From IMG/VR virus record IMGVR_UViG_2554235184_000006: a stretch of DNA of 9,170 nucleotides. One strand, 5' to 3'. Positions within the stretch are counted from its first letter, which is position 1. Every line of letters begins with the position of its first letter. The DNA comes from a virus. Lineage: Duplodnaviria > Heunggongvirae > Uroviricota > Caudoviricetes. The translations under genes were made by a program, and so were the position numbers. Of the stretch, positions 2,836 through 9,170 are shown piece after piece. The notes below the pieces were generated by a model. That model was given only the letters and a program-made list of their open reading frames with translations. It was not told the DNA's origin and searched no databases.

Positions 2836-3134
2836 GTGGTAAATGGGCGGCTGGTGGGTGTGGTGGTTGTTGCTTTCCCGTTGCTGAAAAAGAAAACGCC
2901 AGACTGTTAGCCGGGTATCAGTTAGCGGGAGAAATTTTTAAATACTTCACAATTCAGGCGGTTGACTGTTGTCTGGTTTGCGGGGAGTTTGTTAAAAGAA
3001 ACTGGCATGGTGAATCCCCCTGTGCGGAGGGGCAATCAGCGAGTAGGTATATGGGATAATCGCGGATTCAGGTGCTGGTACTGAATTCACCGGGAGGCAC
3101 CCGGCACCATGCAATGGCACATAGCGCCACTCTC

Positions 3135-3170
3135 CAGCCCCTCTCCGGAGGGGCTGTTTATATTGATTTT
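3135..3170 (+). terminator. Rho-independent terminator at the edge of the AT-rich island
   Basis: Perfect 9-bp stem CAGCCCCTC (3135-3143), loop TCCG, GAGGGGCTG (3148-3156), followed by TTTATATTGATTTT. Sits between upstream + strand transcription and the 3' end of the minus-strand gene 3191..3526. Confidence 0.6.
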
Positions 3171-3190
3171 GTCAGATGTGAGTAAACTCC

Positions 3191-3526
3191 TTATGGACTT
3201 TGTTGTTTTAGCCCATAAGGACATATTTGCAGAGTGCAACGGTTATTAAAGCATTCATTCAATACGTTATCTGTATTTGTAGGGCATTCCTGGCTGTTTT
3301 TGATTAAATTCCAGAATGTTTTATTGAATGGTACTACGTTGTAAATGGTTACAGGTAGCACTTTGTTATTGAGCATGATACCTGTGTGAGTCAGTGTAAA
3401 TATACTTTCAGGAGGTAAGAAAGCATCCGATTGATACCAGATTATTAATTTTATTTTACTCCATATGACTGAAAAAGATATTCCGCATGATGGCTGGATA
3501 ACTGTATCAATCACAATCCACTTCAT
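3191..3526 (-). CDS. Hypothetical Cys-containing protein in an AT-rich island, 111 aa
   Basis: Minus-strand ATG (3524-3526) with AAGGAA RBS 5-6 nt upstream. Composition is strongly AT-rich compared with flanking phage genes. Opposite orientation to the late operon. Six Cys, four of them in the C-terminal [26 protein letters not shown]. No family recognised. Confidence 0.55.
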
Positions 3527-3786
3527 TTAGTTTCCTTGTTTATGCCTTGCTGGTGATGTTCTGAAAAGTATAAATGATATTTTTGATTGTAAACCATAGA
3601 GCAGAATTATTTTTCTGATGTTGTTTATTGTTTATTTAAATGCAGGGTGGTTTATATCTCGTCTTGTAGTTTATCCATGCATATCTGCTTGATGATGAGG
3701 TTTTTATTTAAGGTATGGTTTTGTGTTTTTTCTGTATTACATGTCAGGTATTTTAAAGAATCATTTTTCAGATGGTGGAAAGAACC

Positions 3787-3975
3787 ATGGCATTTAAACA
3801 CTATGATGTTGTCAGGGCGGCGTCGCCGTCAGATCTTGCGGAAAAGCTGACACATAAACTGAAAGAGGGCTGGCAGCCGTTTGGTAGTCCGGTGGCCATA
3901 ACCCCTTATACCCTGATGCAGGCGATTGCAGCAGAAGGTGATGTGGTGGTCAGTGGTGCAACTGAGCCGGAGTGA
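3787..3975 (+). CDS. Small conserved phage protein (possibly the DUF1737-type protein found upstream of holins), 62 aa
   Basis: ATG 3787 with GGTGGAAAG upstream; the in-frame ATG at 3772 has no RBS. Translation MAFKHYDVVRAASPSDLAEKLTHKLKEGWQPFGSPVAITPYTLMQAIAAEGDVV looks, from memory, like the small protein commonly annotated just upstream of S in Stx-type lambdoid prophages. The family name is unverified. Confidence 0.55.
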   Translation: MAFKHYDVVRAASPSDLAEKLTHKLKEGWQPFGSPVAITPYTLMQAIAAEGDVVVSGATEPE

Positions 3976-4217
3976 TACTACGTCATCGTACTGGCCCGGC
4001 ATTCCAGGCCATAAAAGACGGTCTGGCAGTGGGACTAAATGCACTGACGCTGACGGATATTACCAAAAATGCAACGTATGGCGTTGAGATAGAAAGTCTG
4101 GTGCTGGAGATAAATGCACCGGCATCATCATAAAAAGTGAGCCAGTCAAATGGAAGGTATCGTTAAACTCACCGGTAGTGTCAGTGGGTCGTCTGAGACG
4201 CCTGCATGAGTTATCAG

Positions 4218-4250
4218 AGCCATCAGTACTTAACTGGTGGCTTTTTTATT
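4218..4250 (+). terminator. Rho-independent terminator immediately upstream of the holin gene
   Basis: AGCCATCAG (4218-4226), loop TACTTAA, CTGGTGGCT (4234-4242; 9 bp with one G-U pair), then TTTTTTATTGTTG (4243 onward). Confidence 0.65.
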
Positions 4251-4282
4251 GTTGTCAGCTTCCGGATAACGGGAGACGGGGT

Positions 4283-4498
4283 ATGTACCAGATGGAAAAA
4301 ATCACAACAGGTGTGTCATACACCACGTCAGCGGTGGGAACGGGCTACTGGTTCCTGCAGTTGCTGGACAGGGTTTCCCCGTCTCAGTGGGCGGCAATAG
4401 GCGTGCTGGGGAGTCTGCTGTTTGGGCTGCTGACATATCTGACTAACCTGTATTTCAAAATCAAAGAGGACCGGCGTAAGGCGGCGCGGGGAGAGTAA
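4283..4498 (+). CDS. S: Class II pinholin (phage 21 S21-like) with dual-start motif, 71 aa
   Basis: ATG 4283 and ATG 4292 (M-Y-Q-M) with GGGAGA RBS (4271-4276). Translation ...[66 protein letters not shown] closely matches the S21 pinholin as I remember it, with two TMDs and a charged C-terminus. The track ORF 4178..4498 is an upstream in-frame extension that spans the terminator. Confidence 0.85.
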
Positions 4499-4502
4499 AG
4501 TG

Positions 4503-5393
4503 ATGAATAAAAAATATGAACTGGTTGTTAAGGGGATAAATAATTACGGGGATAAGGTTACTGTTACTGTGAAGTCGGAAGGTGACGGGCAAGCGTCGCT
4601 GTTGTTGCCAGATGTGGCGATTAGTCTTGACCGTACTGAAGGTGCCACGCTGGAGTTTTACGAAGCTGAGGCGAAAAAGCAGGCGAAGCAGTTTTTCATG
4701 GATGTTGCTGCCGGGTTATGTGAATGGAACGAACCGTTGCCGGAAAAGCGCCCCGTAATTTTAGAGGCGCAGGATGTGTTGATAACCTACAAAGGAAAGC
4801 TACCGGGAAGAATTACTTGTTCTCTGAAGATGCCGCCGTCAACACTGCGGTCAGAAAAAGATGATGTTGAATCACGTATTGAAAAACTGGAGAGCTACGT
4901 CGTTGAGCTGAATAAGAAATGGTCGATATTGGTGCCTTCTGGCGATGAAAAGCAGTTTGCTGCGTTTGACGATTATTGTCGGAAAGTGATGAGCAGAAAT
5001 CTCGCAGAGTGTTTCAGTATTCATAATGATAATTTCAGTGACCCGGAATGGGAGTGTAACCGGCCATCCTTTGTTGTATCCGGTGATGCTGGGAAAATAA
5101 CCATCTCAGAAAATGGGAAAGTAACACCTCCATCGCACCAGCACAGTGAGGAGCTCATTGAATTTGCCATTGATTACCTGAAGAACAATAAAAAGCAGGG
5201 GCTGATGAAGCGCGTTGGCCGTTGCATGGGATATCTTCAGGTAGCCGCTGAGATTGAAGCGCTGGCCAGTGGTGCTGATAAGGATGCAATTGTGCGGGAG
5301 GCTCTTCTTCGTGATTTTAATACTCCACCCTTTAAAAAAGTGCCGGCTTACTGGCTTCATCCGGGGCTGACTTATCTTAAAGTGCGTATTTAG
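4503..5393 (+). CDS. Hypothetical hydrophilic protein inserted between holin and endolysin, 296 aa
   Basis: ATG 4503, 5 nt after the holin stop (TAA 4496-4498), with GGGGAGAG RBS (4487-4494); stop TAG 5391-5393. Long uninterrupted ORF with no TM segment or signal peptide and a K/E-rich composition. No family recognised. Confidence 0.7.
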   Translation: MNKKYELVVKGINNYGDKVTVTVKSEGDGQASLLLPDVAISLDRTEGATLEFYEAEAKKQAKQFFMDVAAGLCEWNEPLPEKRPVILEAQDVLITYKGKLPGRITCSLKMPPSTLRSEKDDVESRIEKLESYVVELNKKWSILVPSGDEKQFAAFDDYCRKVMSRNLAECFSIHNDNFSDPEWECNRPSFVVSGDAGKITISENGKVTPPSHQHSEELIEFAIDYLKNNKKQGLMKRVGRCMGYLQVAAEIEALASGADKDAIVREALLRDFNTPPFKKVPAYWLHPGLTYLKVRI

Positions 5394-5429
5394 TGGGCCA
5401 GGGACAGCGGCTGAATATTTAATATATCC

Positions 5430-5963
5430 ATGAACACCAAAATCAAATACGGCCTGTCGGCTGCCGTTCTGGCGCTGATTGCCGCTGGTGCGCCTGCGCC
5501 TGACATTCTCGACCAGTTTCTGGATGAAAAGGAAGGCAACCACACCACGGCATACCGTGATGGTGCAGGTATCTGGACCATCTGCCGTGGTGCCATCATG
5601 GTGGATGGCAAACCTGTCGTTCCGGGCATGAAGTTGTCGAAGGAAAAATGCGACCAGGTTAACGCCATTGAGCGTGATAAAGCGCTGGCGTGGGTGGAGA
5701 AAAACATCAGAGTGCCGCTGACCGAACCCCAGAAAGCGGGGATCGCGTCATTCTGTCCGTACAACATTGGTCCCGGTAAGTGTTTCCCGTCGACGTTTTA
5801 CAGACGAATTAATGCTGGTGATCGAAAAGGTGCCTGCGAAGCGATTCGCTGGTGGATTAAGGACGGTGGCAGAGACTGCCGTATTCGTTCAAACAACTGT
5901 TACGGTCAGGTATCCCGTCGTGACCAGGAGAGCGCGCTGGCGTGCTGGGGTATCGACAGATAA
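5430..5963 (+). CDS. R: SAR endolysin (phage 21 R-type true lysozyme, GH24), 177 aa
   Basis: N-terminal Gly/Ala-rich weakly hydrophobic segment GLSAAVLALIAAGAPAP typical of a signal-arrest-release domain. Catalytic E-8aa-D-5aa-T spacing is present in EGNHTTAYRDGAGIWT. Overall similarity to P21 R and DLP12 RrrD-type lysozymes, from memory. Confidence 0.9.
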   Translation: MNTKIKYGLSAAVLALIAAGAPAPDILDQFLDEKEGNHTTAYRDGAGIWTICRGAIMVDGKPVVPGMKLSKEKCDQVNAIERDKALAWVEKNIRVPLTEPQKAGIASFCPYNIGPGKCFPSTFYRRINAGDRKGACEAIRWWIKDGGRDCRIRSNNCYGQVSRRDQESALACWGIDR

Positions 5964-6119
5964 GCAGAATATTTTGCTGAAAAATGAGGAATGGCCACGC
6001 GGGCGGATAACACGAAATCCTGCGAACTGGCGAAACGTAAGTGAATAAAAGTAAAAACCCCGTTTGTTGGCACCAAGCGAGGTTTTGTGTTTCTGACCTT
6101 GAGTAAGGCAAGGGAGAAC

Positions 6120-6302
6120 ATGGCGAAGTGTAAACGAATTCTGTTGAGGTTGACTATGAAAAATGGCCTTGAACTGAAAGCGCCTGTAACTGATGACATC
6201 AGCAGAGCACTGGCTTTTGCCATTAAGTGGGTGGCGGTCGGTGTTGCTGTGTCCCCGATGCTGTATGGGCTGGCAAAACTGGTCATTGCGTTGAAATCGT
6301 GA
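6120..6302 (+). CDS. Small protein with C-terminal hydrophobic segment, 60 aa (alternative start 6156)
   Basis: ATG 6120 with AGGGAGA 2-3 nt upstream (short spacing); an alternative ATG at 6156 has GAGG at 6146-6149. C-terminal [27 protein letters not shown] is TM-like. Stop TGA 6300-6302 overlaps the strong RBS of the next ORF. Family unknown. Confidence 0.4.
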
Positions 6303-6316
6303 AGGGAGGATTAAGC

Positions 6317-6448
6317 ATGTCAGACAAACTCATAACGCTGGCGAAGATCCTCTGTGTAATTGTCGGCATTTCATTTTCACTAATGCTGGTTGCTCTTTTT
6401 CTTTCCATGGCCTGGATGATGTTGTCTTCGTCGGGGTTGCTGGGGTGA
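6317..6448 (+). CDS. Small hydrophobic membrane peptide, 43 aa
   Basis: ATG 6317 with strong RBS GGGAGGA (6304-6310). Translation [43 protein letters not shown] is almost entirely one long hydrophobic stretch. Stop TGA 6446-6448 overlaps the alternative Rz GTG start. Confidence 0.5.
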
Positions 6449-6456
6449 ACATAAAC

Positions 6457-6918
6457 CGAATGCTTTCCGCGTTTATCGTTATTCTGCTGGTGGCCTGTGG
6501 TGCGCTGTGGATGGCAACAGACCATTACCGTGATAACGCGATTACCTACAAAGCGCAGCGCGATAACAAAGCCAGTGAACTGAAGCTGGCGAACGCAACC
6601 ATTACTGATATGCAGGTGCGCCAGCGCGATGTTGCTGCGCTCGATGCAAAATACTCGAGGGAATTAGCCGATGCGAGAGCTGAAAATGAAACTCTTCGCG
6701 CTGACGTTGCCGCTGGTCGTAAGCGCCTGCGGATCAACGCCACCTGTCCAGGCTCCGTGCGTGAAGCCCCCACCACCTCCGGCGTGGATAATGCAACCGG
6801 CCCCCAACTGGCAGACACCGTTACACGGGATTATTTCACCCTCAGAGAGCGGCTGATGACGATGCACAAGCAACTGGAAGGGGCACAGGACTATATCCGC
6901 ACTCAGTGCCTGAAATAA
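6457..6918 (+). CDS. Rz: Rz i-spanin (inner-membrane spanin subunit), 153 aa
   Basis: Translation ...[71 protein letters not shown]...[19 protein letters not shown] is nearly collinear with lambda Rz as I remember it. N-terminal TMD present. Start is ATG 6457 or in-frame GTG 6445. Confidence 0.85.
6671..6856 (+). CDS. Rz1: Rz1 o-spanin (outer-membrane lipoprotein), embedded in Rz in the +1 frame, 61 aa
   Basis: ATG 6671 with GAGGGA RBS (6657-6662). Lipobox-like VVSAC followed by the proline-rich [14 protein letters not shown], matching lambda Rz1. Fully nested inside Rz, the classic spanin arrangement. Confidence 0.85.
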
Positions 6919-7228
6919 GTTTTGTTGATGCGCCGTATCGTCGCTATATTCCCTCATTAACAGAGACCGCAGCCCGACAGGGAGACTCCTCTGCGCGAGT
7001 GTGCGGGGATAATTAAAAACGATGCACACCGGGTTTTTACCGCGTTAATGATTCGCGGGTTTATCCCGGTGCGATGGTGGAAGAAACAGGAAGCTGTATT
7101 ACAGAAAGTGCTACTACTGTATCCCGATGCGATGTATGTAATGTGAGTCAGATAATGGCACAGGATGTGGTGATGTGGCAGTCTGGAACACAGGATATAT
7201 TGTCAGAATAAGACCCGTAGGAATAAAA

Positions 7229-7555
7229 ATGAAAAGACGCCTTTTACTACTTTTTCTGTTATCTGTCCTGGCAGTGGGATGCTCGCAGCAAAAAGCTGAT
7301 GAGCCCCGGCAATTAGTGACGGTGTATCCACGATATCCGGAATATGCTGCAGCAAATTATATCAAGGGGCTGGTTGAGGTTAAGTTCGATATTGGTGCTG
7401 ATGGGACTGTGACACGGATCGTTTTTCTCCGCTCAGAGCCTCATAATTTGTTTCGTGATGAAGTGGTGAAGGCCATGGCGAAATGGCGATTTGAAAAGAA
7501 TCGCCCCTGTCAGGGAGTGAAGAGACAATTTATCTTTACGCCGTCACGTCCTTGA
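7229..7555 (+). CDS. Lipoprotein with TonB C-terminal-like domain, 108 aa
   Basis: ATG 7229 with AGGAA RBS (7219-7223). Signal peptide MKRRLLLLFLLSVLAVGC with a relaxed lipobox. The mature part YPRYPEYAAANYIKGLVEVKFDIGADGTVTRIVFLRSEPHNLFRDEVVKAMAKWRFEK fits the TonB_C pattern (compare E. coli TonB GQVKVKFDVTPDGRV...FEREVKNAMRRWRYEP). The track ORF 7175..7555 is an N-terminal extension without RBS. Confidence 0.7.
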   Translation: MKRRLLLLFLLSVLAVGCSQQKADEPRQLVTVYPRYPEYAAANYIKGLVEVKFDIGADGTVTRIVFLRSEPHNLFRDEVVKAMAKWRFEKNRPCQGVKRQFIFTPSRP

Positions 7556-7647
7556 TGCTTCCAGGTAGAGAGGGGCTGGACGCAGGAGAAAAATGAAAGA
7601 GCCAGCGGTTATATTTTTGTCATGGCTGACGAGGAATGATGGAAGAA

Positions 7648-7670
7648 GGCGTTGTATGCCACACAACGCC
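7648..7670. terminator. Hairpin between convergent genes (candidate bidirectional terminator)
   Basis: GGCGTTGT (7648-7655), loop ATGCCAC, ACAACGCC (7663-7670), followed on the + strand by a T-rich run. Lies between the 3' ends of the + lipoprotein gene and the - ORF. Confidence 0.4.
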
Positions 7671-7677
7671 TCACTGT

Positions 7678-7857
7678 TCATTTCTTCTTTTTCTCTGGTG
7701 GAACCCGATGAATAAGAGTTGCACTGGTTTCCGATGAGATGGCGATATACTCGGGCAAAGTATGCTGGCAGTTTTCCAACTGGTCAAAAATACCTGCTCT
7801 CGTCTGTTGCAATGCCTGCAGCATGCGGCGGCAATGCGCCTTGCTTTTACTAACCAT
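7678..7857 (-). CDS. Small hypothetical protein, 59 aa
   Basis: Minus-strand ATG (7855-7857) with strong RBS GAGGAAGGAAAG immediately upstream. The longer track ORF 7678..8031 has no RBS at its start and overlaps the upstream gene. C-terminal KKKK tail. Family unknown. Confidence 0.4.
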   Translation of the reverse strand: MVSKSKAHCRRMLQALQQTRAGIFDQLENCQHTLPEYIAISSETSATLIHRVPPEKKKK

Positions 7858-7918
7858 CTTTCCTTCCTCTATCAGTCGCTGCGTGAACTCATCATGTAAT
7901 ACCAGGTAAATGCGGATG

Positions 7919-8170
7919 TTATCGGTTTTGGCTACGCAGCATAGTACAAAACGGACAGGTGCATCCCGGGACGGGGGAGGCGTCACATGTCCCTGTGATG
8001 GTTGTTCCGGGTAATGCACTGTGTGGGGCATAAAAATGTCCGATAATTTTACTTTCTACCGCAGTTAGTTGATTCGTTGGTCCTGGTAGCACATTGGGCG
8101 AGGATTTAAATGCCAGGCAACTGAAGGATGATGTTGCAAGGGAGATAGCGAGAATATTTCTGATTTTCAT
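7919..8170 (-). CDS. Small secreted Cys-rich protein, 83 aa precursor
   Basis: Minus-strand ATG (8168-8170) with AGAGG about 9 nt upstream. N-terminus MKIRNILAISLATSSFSCLA looks like a Sec signal peptide. Mature region has a Cys cluster TGTCDASPVPGCTCPFC. The track ORF 7919..8239 extends 23 codons further upstream without RBS. Confidence 0.5.
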   Translation of the reverse strand: MKIRNILAISLATSSFSCLAFKSSPNVLPGPTNQLTAVESKIIGHFYAPHSALPGTTITGTCDASPVPGCTCPFCTMLRSQNR

Positions 8171-8289
8171 TTGATGATGCCTCTGTGTGAAATGACGGTA
8201 AACGACGCACTTGTGCCGGCACATAATAGCAAGCACCATAATAGATCAGATTCGATTCTTGCTGTAAGTGATAATTATTCTCGTTTTCG

Positions 8290-8480
8290 GGTCCTTTCCG
8301 TCGATCCAACAGGTTACGGGGCGGCGACCTCGCGGGTTTTCGCTATTTATGAAAATTTTCCGGGGAAAATCATGTCGGTACTTCTCGAACATAACTATTT
8401 GTTTTTTCTAATATCGAATCCGTAAAAGGTCCGACATGAAAACGCCTAAAAAAGTCATTTTCGGGCACTTTCATGTCGGC
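8290..8480. other. cos site: cosQ-like segment, cosN with 12-nt cohesive end GGGCGGCGACCT at 8319-8330, and cosB-like region
   Basis: 8291-8365 matches the lambda genome junction as I remember it (...CAGGTTACG / GGGCGGCGACCTCGCGGGTTTTCGCTATTTATGAAAATTTTCCGG). Downstream the sequence diverges from lambda cosB and instead carries a TCATGTCGG repeat. Located immediately upstream of Nu1. Confidence 0.85.
8370..8479. repeat. Three copies of TCATGTCGG (direct, inverted, direct): candidate terminase small-subunit R sites of cosB
   Basis: TCATGTCGG at 8370-8378, its reverse complement CCGACATGA at 8431-8439, and TCATGTCGG again at 8471-8479, with an AT-rich possible IHF-bending region between the first two. 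This mirrors the lambda R3 / R2 (inverted) / R1 layout. Confidence 0.5.
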
Positions 8481-8506
8481 CCCTGTATTTATTGTGAGAC
8501 TGTTTC

Positions 8507-9052
8507 ATGAAGGTTAATAAAAAGAAACTTGCCGAAATTTTCAACGTGGATCCGCGAACGATTGAACGCTGGCAGTCTCAGGGACTCCCTTGCGTCTCCG
8601 GAGGTGGTAAGGGCGTTGAATCTGTATTTGATACCGCCATGGCAATTCAGTGGTATGCGCAGAGGGAAGCTGATATCGAAAATGAAAAACTCCGTAAAGA
8701 GGTTGAGGATTACAGGGCTGCCAGTGAGGCAGATCTCCAGCCTGGGACTATTGAGTACGAACGCCATCGACTTACGCGTGCGCAGGCCGACGCACAGGAG
8801 CTGAAAAATGCCAGAGACTCCGCTGAAGTGGTGGAAACCGCATTCTGTACTTTCGTGTTGTCACGGATCGCAGGTGAAATTGCCAGTATTCTTGACGGGA
8901 TCCCTCTCTCGGTACAGCGGCGTTTTCCGGAACTGGAAAACCGACATGTTGATTTCCTGAAACGGGATATCATCAAAGCCATGAACAAAGCAGCCGCGCT
9001 GGATGAACTGATACCGGGGTTGCTGAGTGAATATATCGAACAGTCAGATTGA
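8507..9052 (+). CDS. nu1: Terminase small subunit (Nu1-like), 181 aa
   Basis: C-terminal two-thirds ([74 protein letters not shown]...[43 protein letters not shown]) is nearly identical to lambda Nu1 as I remember it. The N-terminal wHTH domain is recognisably related but divergent. Confidence 0.9.
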
Positions 9053-9170
9053 TATTCTGCGGCGTGATGTACGCGCCGGGCTGCGAGCCCTGTTCAGGCC
9101 GGAGCCACAGACTGCCGTTGAATGGGCGGATGCCAGTTACTATCTCCCGAAAGAATCCGCATACCAGGAA
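9037..9170 (+). CDS. A: Terminase large subunit (gpA-like), N-terminal fragment truncated by the window end
   Basis: GTG at 9037 overlaps the 3' end of nu1, as in lambda where A overlaps Nu1. Translation [48 protein letters not shown] matches the lambda gpA N-terminus (...[32 protein letters not shown]). No stop codon in the window. Confidence 0.8.

Follow-up and report, generated by a model that had tools for sequence, protein, structure and literature searches.

A phage 21-type cos site and a phage 21/lambda chimeric small terminase subunit gene in a lambda-like E. coli prophage, with predicted phage 21 packaging specificity

RESULTS

With a probability of approximately 90%, the right end of the 9,170-nucleotide stretch of viral DNA analyzed here (the window) is the part of a lambda-like E. 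coli prophage in which its cos site and terminase genes lie, and this module is a natural phage 21/lambda recombinant with the packaging specificity of phage 21. Relative to phage 21, the sequence has two discontinuities, one at cosN and one in codons 64 to 72 of nu1, the gene for the small terminase subunit (TerS). The initial annotation of this DNA had described a mosaic in which packaging specificity was swapped. The alignments agree with that description insofar as a different cosB and a different TerS head appear to be combined with a lambda-type nicking site and a lambda-type interface to the large terminase subunit (TerL), while the junction had been placed at the wrong position. Segment identities were obtained from a three-way alignment of the window, lambda (NC_001416), and phage 21, through which the cos sites were also placed using the curated phage 21 annotation (OL657228 and M81255).

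The packaging-termination subsite cosQ (GGGTCCT; 8289 to 8295, plus strand) is 100% identical in lambda and phage 21 and lies ~30 bp upstream of cosN, an offset that it shares with the annotated cosQ of OL657228 (42902 to 42908). The 12-nt cohesive end of cosN (GGGCGGCGACCT; 8319 to 8330, plus strand) matches bases 1 to 12 of both lambda and phage 21 at 12 of 12 positions (100% each); position 8319 corresponds to base 1 of the mature left end, and the nicking subsite is annotated in OL657228. It has been reported that cosQ and cosN are identical in lambda and phage 21 (PMC4669245). The window had been proposed to have lambda-identical cosQ and cosN. This is correct for cosQ and the cohesive end; in the spacer between them (8296 to 8318), however, 3 of 23 bases differ from lambda, and all three are the bases of phage 21 (identity to phage 21, 100%; to lambda, 87%). 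To the right of the cohesive end (8331 to 8363), the window is 88% identical to phage 21 and 100% identical to lambda. From 8364 (cos position 46), similarity to lambda drops to 48%, and it resumes at ~8715 to remain at 94 to 100% through the end of the window.

When 8364 to 8720 was used as the query in a sensitive search, the matches were to phage 21 (OL657228, M81255, and X02501), with 86.8% identity over 97% of the query. The cosB segment itself (8364 to 8506) is 80% identical to phage 21 and 48% identical to lambda, and the differences from phage 21 are mostly in the spacers. The initial annotation had noted three repeats in the order direct, inverted, and direct, and we found exactly three copies of TCATGTCGG in the window, at 8370 to 8378 (plus strand), 8431 to 8439 (minus strand), and 8471 to 8479 (plus strand). 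This number is not random, as 0.07 copies were expected from shuffled sequences and none of 200 shuffles reached three; by comparison, the count with one mismatch allowed (4 observed versus 2.09 expected) is uninformative. The repeats coincide with the annotated R boxes of phage 21. The R3 box (AATCATGTCGGTACTT; 8368 to 8383, plus strand), a putative TerS site, is identical to the annotated phage 21 R3 (positions 50 to 65) at 15 of 16 positions; the inverted R2 box (TTTCATGTCGGACCTT; 8426 to 8441, minus strand) is identical to phage 21 R2 at 16 of 16 positions; and the R1 box (TTTCATGTCGGCCCCTG; 8469 to 8485, plus strand) is identical to phage 21 R1 (positions 150 to 166) at 15 of 17 positions. 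Between R3 and R2, at the position of the annotated phage 21 I1, a predicted I1-like IHF site is present on the minus strand (AAACAAATAGTTA; 8392 to 8404, cos positions 74 to 86), which has one mismatch to WATCAANNNNTTR.

The order, orientation, and spacing of R3, I1, R2, and R1 as well as the CATGTCGG cores are common to the window and phage 21. The overall architecture of cosQ, cosN, and cosB and the positions of the R boxes are also shared with lambda (NC_001416; terminase structures, PDB 1j9i and 6hn7); however, the lambda R core is CGTTTCC rather than CATGTCGG, and neither CGTTTCC nor GGAAACG was present when we read the sequence from 8364 to 8506. Counted from base 1 of the cohesive end, the R cores are at cos positions 53 (plus), 113 (minus), and 154 (plus) in the window, compared with 53, 112, and 153 in phage 21 and 53, 114, and 155 in lambda. 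Because this spacing is close to those of phage 21 and lambda, the critical distance from cosN to R3 and the R3-I1-R2 geometry are preserved. At R3, bp 56 and bp 59 are both G, which are the phage 21 states. At bp 54 (8372), the window has A while phage 21 has G; consequently, all three boxes of the window share the perfect TCATGTCGG core, whereas R3 of phage 21 reads TCGTGTCGG. The suggestion that a non-lambda cosB replaces the lambda R sites is supported by the 48% identity to lambda, but this cosB was not previously unknown: its repeats correspond to R3, R2, and R1 and, judged by its sequence, it is the known cosB of phage 21. A further cosB variant is found in phage PhiR5_1 (353 to 550 of that genome), in which R3 is GCATGTCAGTTCTT, R2 is CGACATC on the top strand, and R1 is TTTCATGTCGTAAC. 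This variant is 72.6% identical to the window over cosB and the 5' part of nu1 and may be an intermediate form, or one with a specificity of its own, within the lambda-like phages.

The nu1 gene (8507 to 9052, plus strand) is intact, has 181 codons, and encodes a full-length protein of the Nu1 family, as evidenced by a match to Pfam PF07471 (Phage_Nu1; E = 6.9e-91, 302.6 bits, profile positions 1 to 164 of 164) and to PHROG 57, terminase small subunit. Codons 1 to 68 (8507 to 8710, plus strand), which encode the predicted winged helix-turn-helix DNA-binding domain, are 91% identical to phage 21 and 62% identical to lambda at the DNA level, and residues 1 to 68 are 88% identical to phage 21 gp1 versus 60% to lambda Nu1. 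For codons 69 to 181 (8711 to 9052), DNA identity is 58% to phage 21 and 94% to lambda. Codons 73 to 181 with the stop codon (8723 to 9052, plus strand) cover the oligomerization core and the putative TerL-binding C-terminus and are of the lambda type: from codon ~72 on, i.e., over residues 72 to 181, the protein is 98% identical to lambda Nu1 versus 50% to gp1, and over residues 141 to 181, it is identical to lambda at 40 of 41 positions (98%) versus 29% for phage 21. The initial annotation of a lambda-like C-terminal region and a divergent N-terminal region is borne out by these values. In the comparison with lambda and phage 21 that it had recommended, cosB and the N-terminus of TerS turned out to be of the phage 21 type, and neither was of the lambda type.

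Within the DNA-binding domain, the recognition helix (residues 17 to 26) is identical to that of phage 21 gp1 at 10 of 10 positions, including E20 and S24, for which lambda has Q20 and E24. The solved structure that best matches TerS is 7lwr, the sequence of which is that of phage 21 gp1 residues 1 to 54. Over these 54 residues, five positions of TerS depart from the phage 21 sequence (K7, V30, G32, G34, and V37), and four of the five are within the loop formed by residues 30 to 37. We take this loop to be the wing of the Nu1 fold. Encoded by 8594 to 8617, it reads VSGGGKGV and is closer to LRGGGKGN of lambda and VSGGGKGN of PDB 7lxs than to ASKGSKGI of phage 21 (SGGGKG in the window versus SKGSKG in phage 21), while the remainder of the domain is of the phage 21 type. 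Given these substitutions, the affinity or specificity of TerS may be shifted.

The A gene for TerL (9027 to 9170, plus strand) starts with GTG as in lambda, overlaps the end of nu1, and runs off the window. Its frame is open for the 48 codons in the window, and the encoded residues are identical to those of TerL in a near-identical prophage of E. coli S1-ZIM-01-A, which is 99.6% identical to the window from 2844 to 9170. Over 641 amino acids, TerL of that prophage is 98.4% identical to lambda gpA and 64.5% identical to phage 21 gp2; within the N-terminal 40 residues, which are the same in the window, the values are about 82% and 30%, respectively. TerL is gpA-like and not gp2-like. In the S1-ZIM-01-A prophage, TerL is followed by lambda-type W, B, C, D, E, and FI homologues and a full set of lambda-type head and tail genes. 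With both the TerS C-terminus (40 or so residues) and the TerL N-terminus (48 or so residues) of the lambda type, the TerS-TerL interface is predicted to be lambda type as well. A patch of TerL just past the nu1 stop codon (residues 8 to 14, A codons 8 to 14; 9048 to 9070) reads IDILRRD compared with VNRLRHF in lambda gpA, and so differs amid an otherwise near-identical lambda-type protein. These residues belong to the N-terminal part of TerL, to which TerS binding has been mapped by lambda genetics.

Upstream of the cohesive end, the window is closely related to phage 21. The right-arm end of the prophage (7020 to 8335, plus strand) is about 99.7% identical to the right end of phage 21, with four mismatches to OL657228 over about 1.3 kb by sliding identity, and its last elements are cosQ and the left half of cosN. 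Identity to phage 21 then changes at 8336, which is five bases beyond the cohesive end, to 80 to 93% until ~8700 and ~60% beyond that point, where the sequence turns lambda-like. The boundary at cosN separates a very recent from a much older relationship to phage 21 (99.7% versus 80 to 93%), and this step would be compatible with recombination either inside the conserved cos core or at the cut cos site or in its vicinity. The switch from phage 21 to lambda falls in nu1 codons 64 to 72 (8697 to 8722, plus strand), where informative sites change type in the three-way alignment; this is also where the DNA-binding domain, 68 residues long in the solved structure 1j9i, ends.

The initial annotation had instead placed the recombination junction ~35 bp after cosN. 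The alignment does depart from lambda close to this point, at 8364 and 33 bp past the cohesive end. However, lambda and phage 21 themselves are 88 to 100% identical from cosQ to cos position 45 and 52% identical thereafter. Because the resemblance between the two phages ends at cos position 45, with unrelated sequences beyond it, the loss of similarity at 8364 is no evidence of a crossover there. We, therefore, consider it very unlikely that the module is a lambda backbone, with the cosQ and cosN of lambda, into which a crossover ~35 bp rightward of cosN introduced a foreign cosB. Such a history would account for the identity of 8309 to 8363 to lambda (100% to positions 48493 to 48502 joined to 1 to 45 of NC_001416 by global alignment) and for the bases at 8336, 8342, 8360, and 8362, which match lambda and not phage 21. 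It does not account for the segment upstream of cosQ (8200 to 8288; 100% identical to phage 21 and 46% to lambda), for the phage 21 bases at all three variable positions between cosQ and cosN, or for the phage 21 identity of the right-arm end, and the break at 8364 needs no crossover to explain it. Moreover, three of the four lambda-like bases are also present in PhiR5_1, which lacks a lambda cosB. A lambda-derived patch at these four positions is unnecessary, since PhiR5_1 shares three of them next to a different cosB; rather, they look like a shared polymorphism in which phage 21 is the odd one out.

Even less probable, in our assessment, is that a diverged cosB together with an altered TerS wing confers a third packaging specificity, akin to that of phage 21 but not the same. 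The 80% identity of cosB to phage 21 and the five substitutions in residues 1 to 54, of which four change the loop to SGGGKG, point in this direction, and PhiR5_1 and other related phages bear still other R-core variants. By contrast, R2 is fully identical to that of phage 21, all three 9-bp cores conform to the phage 21 consensus, the recognition helix is unchanged, and phage 21 is also matched at bp 56 and 59 and at residues 20 and 24, the genetically defined specificity positions (PMC4669245). A decayed prophage remnant, in which cos and terminase are non-functional and the arrangement has no present role, is also unlikely. Many lambdoid prophages of E. coli are defective, and some genes neighboring the module in the S1-ZIM-01-A prophage are annotated as partial pseudogenes. 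Nevertheless, nu1 is intact, the A frame is open as far as the window extends, all cos subsites are intact and correctly spaced, the S1-ZIM-01-A prophage has its full lambda-type head and tail gene set downstream, and the deposited phage genome IdasGreatGrand has the same module with an identical TerS. The evidence as a whole favors a phage 21/lambda recombinant with phage 21 specificity.

The chimera is common in nature. Among 5426 complete E. coli genomes, 540 (about a tenth), O157:H7 strains included, carry the window-type chimera, 634 a phage 21-type left end, and 3910 a lambda-type left end. Chimeras were counted as matches covering at least 80% of the query; because each pure type covers only ~55% of the query, this threshold admits only the chimera. 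In a spread sample of the full-length E. coli matches, all were 97.8 to 99.6% identical to the window over 8364 to 9052, and independent breakpoints were not seen in that sample. The sampled chimeras would fit a single lineage with a single junction. In a set of 50,697 phage records, IdasGreatGrand is the sole carrier of the whole chimera (98.9% identical; TerS, 100%). The match begins only at 8288 (cosQ) and extends rightward, and the right arm of IdasGreatGrand is a different one; here too, the cos core is a mosaic boundary. The IdasGreatGrand record annotates a 47-codon "hypothetical protein" (3780 to 3923) between TerS and TerL, with the start of TerL placed at 3920. Since TerL of lambda-type genomes begins within the end of nu1, this annotation probably reflects a miscalled start or a frameshift in the record.

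A gene for a small TonB_C-domain protein (7175 to 7555, plus strand; Pfam TonB_C, E = 1e-12) is located in the late region of the right arm, just before cos. Phage 21 likewise has a TonB_C gene before cos (CPT_21_73), and the gene looks like a moron or cargo-type gene. An 83-codon open reading frame on the minus strand (7919 to 8170), about 120 bp upstream of cosQ, has a good Shine-Dalgarno sequence, AGAGG, and its product has a signal peptide-like N-terminus (MKIRNILAISLATSSFSCLA) and a cysteine-rich C-terminus; no match to it was found in Pfam or PHROG. This region is 98 to 100% identical to phage 21, in the record of which nothing is annotated there. Farther to the left, identity between the window and the S1-ZIM-01-A prophage is only 88% over 5 to 1707 compared with 99.6% from 2844 on, indicating a further mosaic boundary between 1707 and 2844. 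The S1-ZIM-01-A prophage also contains three tRNA genes downstream of Q that have no counterpart in the window, and a tRNA scan of the whole window found none.

DISCUSSION

The module described here has a close laboratory precedent. The hybrid lambda-21 hy51 combines cosB-21 with a TerS gene made of the 5' portion of gene 1 and the 3' portion of Nu1, is viable with phage 21 packaging specificity, and served for mapping the domains of TerS (PMC4669245 and PMC9026076). As in hy51, the 5' part of TerS in the window is 21 derived and includes the helix-turn-helix, while the 3' part is Nu1 derived and suited to a lambda TerL. The two differ in that hy51 was constructed (Feiss laboratory), whereas the window is natural, with a 21-like part derived from a 21-type lineage that has diverged; moreover, hy51 is described as roughly half and half, whereas the crossover in the window is at codons 64 to 72. 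The feature is, thus, real and already explained, and mechanistically nothing is new. Our full-text literature searches of the searchable library found no published description of a natural lambda/21 chimeric TerS.

With the observed identities, site positions, and breakpoints as the starting point, published genetics and structures of lambda and phage 21 lead us to infer how binding, bending, nicking, and specificity would come about. The two winged helix-turn-helix motifs of a TerS dimer would dock into the R3 and R2 boxes, which would be brought together by an IHF-induced bend at I1, with R1 as an accessory site. The lambda-type C-terminus of TerS would hold the lambda-type TerL on cosN, where TerL would introduce staggered nicks, 47 bp or so from R3, to generate the 12-nt cohesive ends. 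TerL would then translocate the DNA, with packaging proceeding rightward into lambda-type proheads, and cosQ would be used for the terminal cut. Historically, the module would have arisen when a crossover, located where the DNA-binding domain of TerS meets its helical core, linked a 21-type left end consisting of cosB and TerS codons 1 to ~68 to lambda-type sequence for the rest. TerS residues 20 and 24 and R3 bp 56 and 59 are the genetic determinants of lambda/21 discrimination (PMC4669245; Feiss and colleagues). Because all four are in the phage 21 state, the packaging specificity of the module is expected to be that of phage 21. Lambda terminase, in turn, is expected to reject the cos of the window, because Glu24 clashes with the G:C pair at bp 56 (PMC4669245). 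All downstream protein-protein interfaces should be those of lambda, and the specificity that of phage 21.

We suggest, at roughly even odds, that lambdoid phages repeatedly exchange a specificity cassette comprising cosB and TerS codons 1 to ~70, with cos as a recombination hinge. This scenario is supported by three observations: the chimera (540 genomes) is approximately as common in E. coli as the pure phage 21 type (634 genomes), the step in identity to phage 21, from 99.7% to about 87%, is located exactly at cosN, and IdasGreatGrand shares the module only from cosQ. The edges of such a compact cassette may be the universally conserved cosQ-cosN core on one side and, on the other, the transition in TerS from DNA-binding domain to helical core, and the hinge is perhaps promoted by terminase cutting. 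The frequency of the chimera and the cos-hinge pattern may be worth a mention in a comparative study.

The recombinant, in which only the 68-residue DNA-binding domain of TerS is of the phage 21 type, provides a natural confirmation of the TerS domain map established with laboratory lambda-21 hybrids. For the annotation of prophages with this module, it argues for the label of phage 21 packaging specificity with a lambda-type terminase body. Such a label predicts which helper phages and phage-inducible islands would be able to co-package with the prophage and which would not.
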